A stretch of DNA of 64,000 nt, from the NCBI GenBank assembly GCA_965226065.1, contig OZ245332.1, positions 1,690,774 through 1,754,773 of the forward strand, in the 5' to 3' direction. Shown here piece by piece: positions 25,801-31,800 of the stretch (position 1 is its first letter; every line of letters begins with the position of its first letter). This DNA is from Spirochaetia bacterium (GTDB taxonomy: Bacteria; Spirochaetota; Spirochaetia; WTKD01; G963693115). A program made the position numbers.

Positions 25801-28800
25801 TAACATTAATATCATCGTACAAAATACAAAAAGATAAAGCACTTTTTATATTTTTTAATTTCGTGCAAGTACTTAATATAGTATACGGAGTATGAATAGG
25901 CTTCAAGTGTCACCACATGTTTTAAGTATGAAGAGCATGAAGGGTACTCATACATATCAAAACATTGTTCGACATGCACGAGGGCACTTTGGAGAAAGTT
26001 TGTGTGCACATGTTCTTCAGTGTCGAGGATATAAAATTCTTGCAAGAAACTACAAAGTTATTGGTGGAGAAGTCGATATTATATGTTATAAAGAATATAA
26101 TCTTGTTTTTGTGGAGGTAAAAACATGGGAGTATTATACTGAAGATGATATTATCGCTTCAGTAAACATACGAAAACTTTCTCATATTGAAGCTTGTGCG
26201 AATGCGTATATTGCCGATAAAAATATTTTACACACAAGGATGTGTGTACGTGTTGATGTGATGCTTGTAATGCTTTCATATCACACTGTTGTTCATTACA
26301 AAGGAGTGTTATAAATGCCGCATAAAATTAACAGGAGCAAAAACGATGTATCTTTGCAGAAAGTACATTTGTTAAAACGCAAGATACAGAATCCTGAATA
26401 TCTGACAAATGCAATGCAGTGGATTGCTCGTAATCTTGCACAAAACATAAGTTTAAAACAATAGCGAAGACATTAGTATAATAATCGTATGCATGTGGTA
26501 TTTCCTGGAAGTTTTGATCCACCAACATACGGTCATTTAAATATCATAGAACGCTGTGCCGCTATGTTTTCAAAAGTTGATGTCGTCATAGCAGATAATA
26601 AGAATAAAAAATCGCTTTTTAGTGTAGAAGAACGCTTGCGTATTTTGCAGGAAATTGTCGCTGTATATAAAAATGTGCACATTTTTATATGGAATTCCTT
26701 AATAGTAAATTTTCTCACGAAATACAATGCAAATGTGTTAGTGCGAGGTGTTCGCTCTGCATCAGACTATGAATACGAATTTATGCTTGCACAACTGAAC
26801 CGAGGACTTGGAAAAAACGTAGTGGAAACGCTGTTTATTCCTACCGATCAGAAATATTTTGTGTTACGATCTTCTGTCATAAAAGAAATAGTGATGCTCG
26901 GAGGCGATGTATCAGACAAGGTGCCACAGATAGTTGTGCAAGCATTGCAAAAAAAATTTGCAATGCTTGCACAGCGATCCTGAACTTTAAAAATTTGTAT
27001 GATTTATAATCATGCGTATCGTAAAATTTTCAAAATATTTACCATAACAGAGGTATAGTAATACAGATGAATACATTATGGGTACATGGTGATTTACAAC
27101 AAATAGGAATTGGAGTACATAATGTTGATGTCATGAGAGATTTTTATGCATCCGTGCTTGGCTTTGATACACTTTTGTTTTGCACAGAGGGAAGCATTGA
27201 CATTATGTCTGCCTACACAGGTGGACGCAGCTGGAATAGAAAAGCAATGCTTCTTGCAAATTTCAATGGTGGAGCTACACTTCAGTTGTGGCAACATACG
27301 GAGCATCTCCATGTACCTGCAGAAAATGAAGTAGGGCTTGATAACCGTGGAATATTGTGTACCTGTGTGCGTTGCTGCGATATTGTGAATGTGCGAAATC
27401 GCTTGTTTGATTCGGGATACGAGATAACTCGTATATCTGCAGATAGTCTTGGAAGAAATCGATGTTATGTAAAGGATCCTGAAAATAATTGGATAGGACT
27501 TGTAGAAACATCTGAGGGGTGGCTGAAAAAAAAAGCACATAGTATAGGCGGGGTATGCTCAATCATTATCGGAGTTTCAGATATTAAGAAAAGTATGCAT
27601 TTTTATTCGACTGTGTGCGGATACGATACCGTTTTATCAGAAGAAGTTGGAACCTTTACAGAATTTGAGGCATTTCGAGGTCAACAAAAGGTACGCCGAG
27701 TGTTGCTAAAACGTAGCAAAAAATTACAAGGTGCCTTTGCTCATTTATTGCAGTCTTCAACTATAGAGTTGATTCAGGCCTGTGAAAAACCGCAAGAGCA
27801 TGTATATACAAATTATGAAGAACGTCTTTGGGGAGATCCGGGCTTTATGCATGCATGTTTCGACGTGAAAAACATGCGCGCATTGTGCAATCATCGCAAA
27901 ATACATAAAGATCCATTTATAATTGATTCTGATTTTTCTACAGAAGAAGTATCAGGGCACTTTACCTATGCAGAAGACCCCGATAGAACATTAGTAAAAT
28001 TTGTGGAAATTTATACTTGGTCTCTTATGAAAAAATATGGGTTAGTTCTTAACTTAAAGAAACACAAGAACGCAAAACCACTTCCTAAATTTTTCATGCG
28101 CCTTTTAGCGTTGAAAAAAATACTGCATAAAAAATCTTAACATTTTTTCTCACATTGCGTATATTGTGATAATATGCGCTGTTTCTATACATAGATTTTC
28201 AAGAGATTTTGCTGTTCGTTTTCTGTCATGATTGTGTTTAAGTTTAGTTCATCGCGCATTGTAACAAACTGACGTATGGTGTATTCTATTTCTTCTTTTG
28301 AATGATTTGCGGTGGGAATCATACGATACATTACAAGTCCGCGTGGTATAACGGGGTATATCACGGCTGAGACGAAAACACCTTTTTCTCGCAATAAGGT
28401 AATAGTTTGCGGAGCTATCGAATGCAGCGGGGTATTTTCTCCTATGGGAATGTATACGCTTACAATAGGGGATTCTCCGCTTCCTATGTAGAAGTTTTCT
28501 GCTTGCAATTCTTGTTTGAGCATGCGTGAATTTTTCCACATTTTTTCTCTTCGTATATCGCCTTCATTCCCTGCAATAATAGCAAGCATTTTCTCCACTG
28601 TTTTTACGTACACCATGGGCAATGCCTTTGCGAATATCTGCGTTCGCGCATTGTATTCTATCCAATCAATGACTGCTTTTTTTGCAACAGCAAAGCCGCC
28701 TATAGCTGCAAACGCTTTTGCATAAGTGCCAAAATAAATGTCTATTTCATCGGATACGTTTAGCAGCGTAGCTATTCCGCGCCCACCGTCTCCTAAAATC

Positions 28801-31800
28801 CCGCATCCATGTGCATCATCTACAAACAATCGTGCTCCGTACTGTTTTTTCATAGCAATGATTTGTTTTAATTTCGCAAAATCTCCTGTCATGCCATATA
28901 CGCCTTCTATAAGAATTAATATTCCTTCTTTGCGTTGTTTGTGTGTATCTTTCAGAACTCGCTCTAAATCGTCAATATTATTGTGCTTAAATATTCGTAT
29001 GTTTGCGTGCGACAAAAATGCTGCATCAACAATACAGGCGTGGGAGAGTTTGTCCATAATTATCGTATCTTGTGGCTTTGCAAGTGCACTTACAATTCCT
29101 AATACGCCTAAATATCCATAATTAAATATCAATGCTTTTTCAGCACCTTGCCATTGTGCAAATTTTTCTTCAAGTTGTAAATGATAGTTTGTAGTTCCGC
29201 TTAGCATACGGGAGCCCATGGGAGAACTTATGCCAAAAGTATCAATGGCTTCTTGTGCTACTTTTATAACTTCAGGGTGATTAGCAAGTCCAAGGTAATT
29301 ATTTATAGACCACATCACGCATTTTTTTCCGCCAAACTCCATGCTGGTTTCGGGACATGGATGTAATATAGGGCGTGAGAGAAACCTATCGTCTTTCATT
29401 CGTAGTTCTCCAAAATACCCTTCACTCGTATAACATTTTTCAAAAATATCTTTTGTGTGTTCCATAGAATAGTTGTTCCTTCTTTACATTAAGTGAATTA
29501 AGCGTTTAATTTGCTAGCTTGCCATGTGTGGCGTATCATGCTTAAAAGTTAATTATACCTTCTTTTTTAATAAAATTGTGTATACGAAATTCTACTAAAG
29601 AACCGTATTTCATGTTGACTATAGTCTGGTGGCTGGGTATTATTATGTGTAAGCATCTTCGTTATTGTTACCGCGTGAAATTTCTATGTATCGCAATAAA
29701 TAATAACCATAAGCCCAAGGAGAATGTATGAGAATTTATGAAATTATGTGTGTTTTTGCTCCTCAAGATGAGCAGTTTCAAGAAAGTCTTACTTTAGTGA
29801 AAGAAAAGCTTGAGTTATTGGGTGCAAACATACAATCTGAAAAAGATATGGGAGTGAAAGAACTTGCATATCAAATACAAAAACACACCCATGCACGGTA
29901 TCTCTATTTTATTGTGCAAATGTCTCCCGAAAAAGCGCATCTTATGCGCAATGAATGTAAGCTTATTGCAGCGCTGTTGCGTATTCTCATTATCAAAAAT
30001 GACAAGAAAAGAGGCCAATAAATGACGGATATCAATAAAGTATTTCTTATAGGGCGATTGACTCGAGAAGCAGAATTAAAATCTTTGACAAATACCAGTG
30101 TTTGTAACTTTTCTATTGCGATCAATAGGGCAATGAAAGATGCATCGGGTAATTGGAGCGATGAAGTTCATTATTTTGATATTGAATTGTACGGTAGACA
30201 GGGCGAAGCAATTCATCGTTATTTGCAAAAAGGAAAGCAAGTTGGTATTGAAGGTGCGCTTAAACAAAATCGCTGGGAAGATGCGAATGGAAACAAGCGT
30301 AGTAAAGTATTAGTTGTTGCGGCAAATGTACAATTGCTTGGCAATATGAATTCCGATGCAGCTTCCTCTGAGAATCAGCAGAAAAACATGGAAAATGTCT
30401 CATCCTCTATGCCTAGTGCTGGTGCCGATATTGATGACGATATTCCATTTTAAAGTACGGAGAAAAATATTATGAACGAAAATAACAATACACCTGAACA
30501 TACAAGTGCAGAAAGAAGTAATAATCTTGCTCATAATGATGCAGGTGCTACTAAAGATAATAATGCATCGAGAGATGGAGGCGAAGCTTCTTCTTCCACG
30601 ACTTCTTCTGAACAATCACAGGGGGGGTATAGAAGACATGGACAAGACGAGCAAACATCGTCACATTTTCCGAGACGCAATAACACACAGGGTTTCCAAA
30701 GAAACAACGCTGCAAGTGGACATAAGCGAGGTGGGTCATATCGTTCTTTTAGAAAAGAAAAATATGATAAAATAGCCGCTGAAAAACTTGTTATAGATTA
30801 TAAACAGCCTGATATTTTAAAGCGATTTTTGACTGAAGGTGGGAAGATTTTTTCCCGTTATGTTACGGGGAATTCTGCGAAAAACCAGAGACGACTTGTC
30901 AGAGAAGTAAAACGCGCGCGATTTATTGGACTTCTTCCTTCAGCGTAAGAGACTTTACGTTTGTCAATAGTTATGCGTGAAGGGACGCAAATTCCATGAC
31001 CATAAAGAGCAAAAATATTGCCGTCATAATATATGCGGGATCTGCAATTTTATTGTATTTGACAGGTTTTTTGTCTTTTTTTATATGCGTTCCTCTTATT
31101 GTCGCGTACTATGTGCGTGGTTATGAATTTTGTAAAAAGAGCGCACTTGTTTTTTTTATATGTATAATGCTTGTGCGTATTGTGAGTATTTTCTCGCTTA
31201 CTGGAAATGAAGTACAGACGGGTTATTCTTCATCTGTTCAAGATTTTGGCGTATTACCTACAGACTCTACGTATTCTTTAATTTATGAAGCAGTGTATTG
31301 TATCAGCGCAATTGTCGCGGTTATGCTCTTGCTTCGTTCTCGGTTTATATGGCCACTACGCATTCTTGTTGCTACATTTCTTTTATTTGCAAGCACGTAT
31401 GCGCAGATACGATACATTCAGGATAACTTATCAGTGATAGATGAAGCGTCGCCCGTGTTTTTTTCCATGCTGGAGCGTATTAGTGGTGTTTCACATTTTC
31501 AGAGTATGGGTAATAGTACCGTACCTGTATTTAACGAGGGACAGTCGATTGCAGTGATTCAAAAATTGCTTTCTACCGTATTGTTTTTTACATGGACTGC
31601 GGCAATGTGTATAGTAATTCTCAATTGGTTTATAGCTATAATAATTACCCGAAGAATTTTAGGTTTCAATCTCAATAACTATTTACACTATGTGTATACA
31701 AAAATTTTCAGTTCCTACTCTGTTAAAATGCCGTTTATATTAGTATTTTCGATACTTATAGCGTTTTTATTACGTAATAGTACACAAACCGCACTGATAT

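Follow-up and report, generated by a model that had tools for sequence, protein, structure and literature searches.

Does a spirochaete carry the committed steps of sulfonolipid synthesis? The question is raised by an acyltransferase gene in the 64,000-nucleotide stretch of spirochaete DNA analysed here (the window). Capnines are used as markers of Bacteroidota in gut and marine lipid work. In a 2023 review, sulfonolipid synthesis is described as apparently limited to that phylum (PMC10191378). If the assignments discussed below are true, a second phylum with its own enzyme clade would weaken the capnine marker, and an unexpected envelope or signal molecule would be added to spirochaetes.

Acyltransferase Gene and Enzyme Assignment

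The following features of the window bear on this question.

28185..29465, minus strand: putative cysteate fatty-acyltransferase (CFAT/SulA/CapB-like) of the spirochaete clade, a 426-aa ORF assigned by sequence comparison
29476..29483, minus strand: AGAAGGAA, a run resembling a ribosome-binding site, 10 nt upstream of the ATG at 29465, read from the sequence
27067..28140, plus strand: tandem VOC/glyoxalase-fold protein, 357 aa, candidate pathway partner, convergent on the acyltransferase
28157..28179, unstranded: 10-pair hairpin, possible shared terminator, in the 44-nt gap between the convergent VOC and CFAT genes

The survey's finding was that the best PDB matches of the 28185-29465 protein are CFAT and SulA, well above SPT, and the ranking obtained here agrees, with 28EH (CFAT) at 3.8e-96, 7U7H (SulA) at 8.9e-96 and 3A2B (SPT) at 6e-67. 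These nearest solved relatives, SulA of Alistipes finegoldii (7U7H) and CapB-CoCFAT of Capnocytophaga ochracea (28EH), have in common with the window protein the PLP and cysteate contacts N52, G81, G114, Y115, H139, C141, E187, D216, H219, F245, T247, A249, K250, F278 and K280 (CoCFAT numbering). The alpha-oxoamine synthase catalytic set is also complete (N55, H142, D216, H219, T247, the PLP lysine K250, and R381), and Tyr118 and Lys280 are retained. Lys at SulA position 281, as opposed to Ala in SPT, has been described as diagnostic (PMC9304779). The equivalence proposed for Lys280 holds, in that this residue aligns with SulA K281 and CoCFAT K280 and is present in 51/51 sequences of the spirochaete clade, in 70/70 from Bacteroidota/Balneolota, and in 0/25 outgroup sequences.

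A divergent SPT, or an enzyme of mixed specificity, might instead make sphingoid bases, with the cysteate synthase serving some other purpose, but this is very improbable. All three NCBIfam SPT models score below their cut-offs on the window protein (299/500, 295/640, and 232/670 bits, score/cut-off), as do the BioF and Kbl models. Bacterial SPT (3A2B) has the fold family and catalytic set in common with the window protein, but carries Ala where the latter has Lys280 and is the much weaker match (6e-67 versus 4e-96). Comparison with a same-genus relative points to purifying selection on the acyltransferase (dN 0.15, dS 2.6, the latter near saturation).

Clade Position and Pocket Residues

A quick tree built from 60 rows, from which the characterised enzymes were left out, their link being the PDB search, gives the CFAT clade a support of 100 and places its spirochaete branch as sister to Bacteroidota with a support of 99. 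The window protein is about 40-44% identical to Bacteroidota proteins of this clade. Bacteroidota are the source of all 18 CFATs listed in Table S1 of PMC13692747. Its changes relative to CoCFAT include Ala82 to Ser, Met118 to Val, Ser120 to Gly, and Ala257 to Gly.

The residues that would favor an SPT-like function are found among 23 positions mutated toward SPT in an earlier study (PMC13692747), at which the window protein has the CFAT state at 13, the SPT state at 8 (85, 88, 123, 126, 152, 246, 257, and 363), and neither at 2; the median SPT-state count is 6 for the spirochaete clade and 1 for Bacteroidota. Ser85 occurs in 48/51 spirochaete CFATs, while Ala occurs in 67/70 Bacteroidota sequences and in the characterised CFATs; in the SulA paper, the fit of cysteate is tied to small Ala side chains. 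Against sphingoid-base synthesis, K280, Y118, E187, and A249 are in the CFAT state in 51/51 spirochaete sequences. Substitutions of CoCFAT toward SPT never gained serine activity (PMC13692747). As judged from alignment and tree, the spirochaete enzymes are a separate sister clade of putative CFATs that is SPT-like at several pocket and second-shell sites.

Cysteate Synthase and Its Distribution

The second gene lies outside the window, 1.25 Mb from the acyltransferase gene.

Contig 465046-466368 (L001:8047-9369): putative cysteate synthase, archaeal-type, TIGR03844 362.6 bits

This score exceeds the equivalog cut-off of 324.9 bits, as the survey had reported, and the archaeal type is that of Alistipes and Odoribacter according to the 2023 review (PMC10191378). 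The gene is under purifying selection relative to the same-genus relative (dN 0.20, dS 1.7, near saturation).

An earlier sample of 121 class genomes, with 29 acyltransferases and 24 synthases, had suggested that about a quarter of Spirochaetia carry the pair, and the proportion is similar in a larger sample, in which the acyltransferase is found in 73/301 genomes, the range from E 1e-75 to 3e-103 being empty of matches, and the synthase in 65/301, 60 of them above the TIGR03844 cut-off. The nesting of synthase genomes within acyltransferase genomes likewise persists: 64 of the 65 have both genes, and in the remaining one (G247) an acyltransferase directly behind the synthase is broken by the contig end. 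Nine of the 73 acyltransferase genomes are without synthase, five of these nine being single-contig assemblies. Among family relatives, 2/5 match in the repeat, as expected from the three of five previously noted to lack a match.

The pair had also been described as often forming one operon, and indeed the synthase lies directly upstream of CFAT as a tandem pair in 55/64 genomes having both, often together with cysD/cysNC/cysH. This arrangement argues further against an SPT, although the unlinked genes of the present genome (G000) would be compatible with one. The CFAT and cysteate synthase assignments in this genome are well supported, and the pair is predicted to start sulfur-lipid synthesis in about a quarter of the sampled relatives.

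Operons, Reductase, and Sulfur Supply

Bacteroidota genes of this pathway are mostly scattered, and according to the KCR paper neither C. gleum nor A. finegoldii has the reductase clustered with cfat and cys, whereas spirochaete operons unite sulfate activation, synthase, acyltransferase, reductase, and VOC genes. The order is SDR-cysD-cysNC-synthase-CFAT in both G208 and G300, the VOC gene adjoining in the latter, and cysD-cysNC-synthase-CFAT-cysH in Oceanispirochaeta loci; a genome of another class (G648) has synthase-CFAT-VOC on one strand, and a Bacteroidota genome (G449) has overlapping SDR-CFAT-VOC genes, also on one strand. Such operons strengthen the CFAT and cysteate synthase assignments and point to testable pathway members. 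One of these is a candidate 3-ketocapnine reductase of an SDR family that is linked to CFAT or VOC in both phyla, 47/53 of its spirochaete carriers having CFAT; a FastTree tree of this family has an unresolved base from which no direction of transfer can be read. No member was found in G000 under the 1e-60 cut, the only candidate being divergent (147 bits).

The best joint explanation, which we consider probable, is that synthase and CFAT together yield 3-ketocapnine, with further steps for supply, reduction, and the VOC protein. Beyond the observed residues, clade, co-occurrence, and gene order, we infer that phosphoserine would be supplied by SerA/SerC; SerC passes PRK05355, and the SerA candidate falls under both PGDH cut-offs. 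Sulfite would come, in many relatives, from the linked cysD-cysNC-cysH genes. A PAPS-reductase-family gene is absent from G000 (93% complete), G093, G155, and G115, and no sulfite route was found among the ORFs scanned in G000, which would need to obtain sulfite or cysteate from outside. Two rhodanese-domain proteins (TrhO-like, MoeB-like) were rejected as sulfite sources, as were two genes of the TauE family, which have no sulfur-pathway neighbours among the ORFs scanned. The ketone would then be converted to capnine by the linked short-chain reductase.

End Product

Of the claim that this spirochaete has the committed steps for sulfonolipids, the part concerning the two enzymes stands and that concerning the lipid itself does not yet: synthesis of 3-ketocapnine is likely on the basis of the genes, and a mature membrane sulfonolipid is unproven. 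No clear N-acyltransferase was found in G000, where the Bacteroidota-linked acyltransferase profile reaches a best score of 18 bits, and a gene at 1097943-1099202 was rejected as a generic AGP acyltransferase behind lgt; a PF01553 acyltransferase is near VOC in 21/80 loci. The acyltransferase gene is present in 9/11 Oceanispirochaeta genomes, and the lipidome of Oceanispirochaeta M1T/M2 (Table S46 of PMC11129491), which covers abundant species under one growth condition, lists neither capnine nor any other sulfur lipid, nor hydroxy fatty acids or sphingolipids. For Lutibacter, however, capnines are reported in that study (PMC11129491).

The lack of a listed sphingolipid is a further point against the SPT interpretation. 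The lack of sulfur lipids and hydroxy fatty acids, in contrast, would lead one to think of a product other than the Bacteroidota-type membrane sulfonolipid, its form set by the VOC protein: capnine itself, free or modified, or some other small aminoketone derived from cysteate, such as a signal. The missing N-acyltransferase, the separate clade with its altered pocket, and a divergent regulator of the TetR type that precedes many of the operons all fit such a product. However, CFAT is accompanied by the same VOC-SDR module in Bacteroidota, which are known producers, and the lipid table has the limited coverage given above. Such an end product appears somewhat unlikely. For N-acylation of capnine to a membrane sulfonolipid we see close to an even chance, leaning slightly to the negative, and such a lipid, if formed, is probably minor or conditional.

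Tandem-VOC Neighbour and Signs of Erosion

Two observations go beyond the survey's finding: a conserved gene next to the acyltransferase, at 27067-28140, and signs of pathway erosion in this genus. Acyltransferase is present in 61/63 spirochaete and 34/34 Bacteroidota carriers of the VOC gene, which lies behind a reductase in 35/80 loci. Pfam and NCBIfam hold no family specific to the tandem-VOC protein, and a PDB sequence search with the family gave weak partial matches only. In fold, the neighbour resembles the PcpA-type dioxygenase 4HUZ (Z 24.7, rmsd 3.0, 276 aligned), maize glyoxalase I 6BNN (Z 21.5), and human GLOD4 (Z 19.1), with 12-15% identity to all three, but differs in being confined almost entirely to CFAT-bearing genomes. 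The family invariants are Q11, Q12, E73, H262, and E311, with Q11/Q12, E73, H262, and E311 in 95/95 other rows; glyoxalase I has the four metal ligands Gln/Glu/His/Glu. The protein is likely an unstudied member of the CFAT pathway, a candidate that would work with the reductase on the 3-keto intermediate. Its most likely role would be that of a metal-dependent isomerase or epimerase, which is the weakest step of the proposal.

In the window copy, Gln73 and Lys311 replace the Glu of 95/95 other members (E73Q, E311K), and 17/70 near-invariant columns deviate, the most among 17 rows. The VOC copy of G093, to which the window copy has 64% tblastn identity, is frameshifted, and for this reason a dN/dS value for the VOC gene is invalid; that of G171 bears a stop, and G171 lacks both CFAT and synthase. 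These features, with the absence of sulfate activation and the broken-up operon, might suggest that a pathway real in the phylum is in decay in this genus and has ceased to be productive there. However, CFAT and synthase are intact here, with all catalytic residues kept and low dN, and an assembly error could account for the frameshift in G093. We consider such a loss of a productive pathway improbable.

Taken jointly, these data can be read more broadly, in that capnine chemistry may be old in free-living Spirochaetota, in more than one class, and not a Bacteroidota speciality, that the tandem-VOC protein may be an unrecognised capnine-lipid enzyme in both phyla, acting with the reductase on 3-ketocapnine, and that standard surveys may have missed a cysteate-derived lipid or signal in spirochaetes. 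This reading is tentative and, on balance, rather doubtful. A FastTree tree of the VOC family has an unresolved base, and the direction of transfer is not readable from it.

In a promoter and terminator scan of the region, site counts, including those of the hairpin type, are at chance level. The neighbouring genes for HepS, a 207-aa protein, RNase Y, YmdB, and PtsI look like background synteny.

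Identity of the Two Enzymes

The acyltransferase gene and its convergent neighbor occupy the following positions in the window:

28185-29465, minus strand: cysteate fatty-acyltransferase (CFAT), 426 aa
27067-28140, plus strand: VOC gene, ending 44 nt from the CFAT stop

The window gene most likely encodes a CFAT, as the survey had proposed: its closest PDB matches are Capnocytophaga ochracea CFAT (CoCFAT, 28EH, E 3.8e-96) and Alistipes finegoldii SulA (7U7H, 8.9e-96), ahead of serine palmitoyltransferase (SPT; 3A2B, 6e-67), K280 is kept, and none of the NCBIfam models for SPT, BioF, Kbl and ALAS reaches its cut-off. 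Residues of CoCFAT described in PMC13692747 were transferred through the PDB-search alignment, in which all catalytic and PLP contacts are retained, including K280 and Y118, the sites at which alanine mutants of CoCFAT are nearly dead (PMC13692747). Among deduplicated sequences, K280 is present in 51/51 of the spirochaete clade (a set that excludes two non-CFAT paralogues from spirochaete loci), 70/70 from Bacteroidota/Balneolota and 0/25 of the outgroup. At the 23 diagnostic positions, those mutated toward SPT in PMC13692747, the window protein has the CFAT state at 13, the SPT state at 8 and another at 2; median CFAT/SPT states are 13/6 in spirochaetes and 21/1 in Bacteroidota. The sharpest difference between the two groups is Ser85, found in 48/51 spirochaetes, versus Ala in 67/70 Bacteroidota. 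According to the text of PMC13692747, none of its variants, A82S included, gained serine activity.

The second gene (contig 465046-466368) is likewise predicted to be a cysteate synthase, in agreement with the survey, scoring 362.6 bits against the TIGR03844 cut-off of 324.9.

A quick IQ-TREE analysis used 60 of the roughly 150 rows. In it, the CFAT clade (support 100) splits into a Bacteroidota branch (99) and a spirochaete branch (91, below the tool's 95 mark), the latter including one WOR-3, one Legionellaceae and one unclassified MAG; because the two branches separate, spirochaete CFATs lie outside the sampled Bacteroidota. A candidate division WOR-3 MAG has the synthase, a K280 CFAT and the VOC gene arranged as in spirochaetes (L202:3693-7363), which takes the module into a third phylum. 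The Legionellaceae MAG has a K280 enzyme beside the spirochaete clade (L204:4983-6218), and the synthase is absent from that locus. A relative whose signature residues are those of SPT (Ala280, Met245, Ser249) occurs in a Treponemataceae MAG (L084:7061-8257) and in several Lachnospiraceae/Clostridia MAGs (loci of this set: L072, L076, L078-L085, L092), suggesting possible sphingolipid synthesis in gut lineages.

Distribution and Gene Order

CFAT occurs in 73 and the synthase in 65 of 301 Spirochaetia genomes, with both in 64, and the synthase lies immediately upstream of CFAT on the same strand in 55 of these 64, which bears out the survey's finding that about a quarter of sampled Spirochaetia have the pair, often as an operon; since related genomes are not independent, these counts are tallies and not statistics. 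Nine CFAT genomes of the 301 lack the synthase, and in three genomes (G105, G217, G285) it has gone from its place between a TetR gene and CFAT. Across a phylum sample, CFAT matches were found in 22/201 genomes, 21 of them outside the class, and the synthase was above cut-off in all five tested.

The order cysD-cysNC-synthase-CFAT was seen in 3 of 20 regions examined (one with cysH behind) and, with cysH, in 4/4 Oceanispirochaeta-like loci; this gene order adds a predicted sulfite route alongside the two enzymes. In many genomes a divergently transcribed TetR-family regulator stands at the operon, and it is retained where the synthase was lost:

L112:10621-11244: divergent TetR regulator (also in L099, L100, L108-L111, L113)

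In one genome, G178, a phosphate-binding-type protein and further genes follow the synthase-CFAT pair (L098:8825-14436), a single instance that hints at a link to phosphate limitation.

The VOC Neighbor

The VOC protein has a tandem VOC/glyoxalase fold (structure model pLDDT 88.7), and its model matches 4HUZ (Z 24.7) and maize glyoxalase I (21.5) at 12-15% identity. Among the 301 class genomes the gene is present in 63, and 61 of these 63 also carry CFAT; of the other two, G171 has a VOC copy with a stop and has lost both CFAT and synthase, and in G292 a contig ends beside the VOC gene. Twelve CFAT genomes of the 301 lack it. In a Bacteroidota sample (tables compared by eye), VOC was found in 34/171 and CFAT in 61/171 genomes, with CFAT in 34/34 VOC genomes. 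From these counts, VOC is dispensable for many CFAT carriers, yet rare without CFAT.

The best 80 VOC loci, from 9 of 64 parts of the genome collection, comprise 9 from spirochaetes, 69 from Bacteroidota/Balneolota and 2 unclassified. A short-chain reductase (SDR), a candidate for converting 3-ketocapnine to capnine, immediately precedes the VOC gene on its strand at 35 of these 80 loci, 21 have a PF01553 acyltransferase close by, and seven Bacteroidota loci have a CFAT-level match within 5 kb; in the Bacteroidota genome G449, SDR, CFAT and VOC overlap on one strand. With eight candidates scored per genome, the linked SDR family was found in 53/301 spirochaete genomes, 47 of them with CFAT, and in G208 and G300 it comes first in an SDR-cysD-cysNC-synthase-CFAT cluster.

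Q11, Q12, E73, H262 and E311 are kept in 95/95 other rows of the VOC family, a pattern that we take to match the metal ligands of glyoxalase I and from which we infer a putative isomerase or epimerase. The protein may act in that capacity on the 3-keto intermediate, the least certain step of the scheme. It is a new candidate pathway component common to spirochaetes and Bacteroidota.

In family f65 of another class, the VOC genes belong to a diverged subfamily (E about 1e-67 vs 1e-150) that is not linked to CFAT (L335-L337). In three spirochaete loci the VOC gene adjoins a second paralogue of the alpha-oxoamine synthases, which has Asn at 280 and 31-33% identity:

L198:2381-3592: second paralogue
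L200:340-1536: second paralogue
L287:1418-2605: second paralogue

The Pathway in the Source Genome and Lipid Evidence

A distance of 1.25 Mb separates CFAT from the synthase in the source genome. Both genes are intact, and they are 77% and 71% identical, respectively, to those of a same-genus relative, with low dN. SerC is above its model cut-off and the SerA candidate below. No PAPS-reductase-family gene was found in this 93% complete genome, which suggests that sulfite or cysteate would have to be supplied externally. Its top-scoring SDR (contig 416588-417445) has the same top NCBIfam family as the linked SDRs, at a lower score and on a long branch. Q73 and K311 are present in the window VOC copy, which is probably inactive, and the copy in another compared genome, G093, is frameshifted; this genus appears to be losing the pathway, accessory gene first. 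Most likely, the enzymes of the source genome make cysteate and 3-ketocapnine, and the case for a mature N-acyl sulfonolipid in spirochaetes is at best evenly balanced.

CFAT is present in 9/11 Oceanispirochaeta genomes, and strains M1T and M2 likely carry one of the type of WP_114629604.1, a K280 orthologue (RefSeq multispecies, unclassified 'Ocean...' isolates). Their intact polar lipids were profiled in PMC11129491, where Table S46 gives hexose lipids, PC, PG, cardiolipins and an unknown phospho-sugar lipid. None of the formulas in that table contains sulfur, and Table S45 gives no hydroxy fatty acids for either strain; the same study reports Lutibacter capnines. These tables count against a membrane sulfonolipid, but a minor or conditional lipid could be hidden by the single growth condition and peak-area reporting.

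In the published strict gut survey, Bacteroidota account for 9632 of 9633 prioritised genomes. Spirochaetes or treponemes are not named in the main texts of PMC9304779, PMC11525784 and PMC11211663, in parts 1-3 of 5 of that of PMC13692747, or in the searched supplements of PMC11525784 (7 of 8), PMC13692747 and PMC11211663; this negative excludes the survey figures, Liu 2022, Hou 2022 and Vences-Guzman 2021, any of which could show spirochaete homologues. In literature searches assessed mostly from listings, no report of spirochaete capnine genes or a glyoxalase-fold partner was found. What is new for this known pathway is a second phylum, a distinct clade and an operon structure.

Other Features

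Between rplI and dnaB lies a low-GC islet (0.31-0.32; window 32726-35674) that looks like a mobile restriction-modification unit, its two further ORFs having no Pfam match:

33509-34414: IS1595-family transposase
34411-35373: N6/N4 DNA methylase

Elsewhere in the source genome, two malate-dehydrogenase-like ORFs stand in tandem (L322:8164-9875), the second matching at the N-terminus only, near PARCEL-repeat surface proteins. One 525-aa ORF at window 20767-22344 fuses the aspartate carbamoyltransferase catalytic and regulatory domains, an arrangement known from Thermotoga and Treponema.
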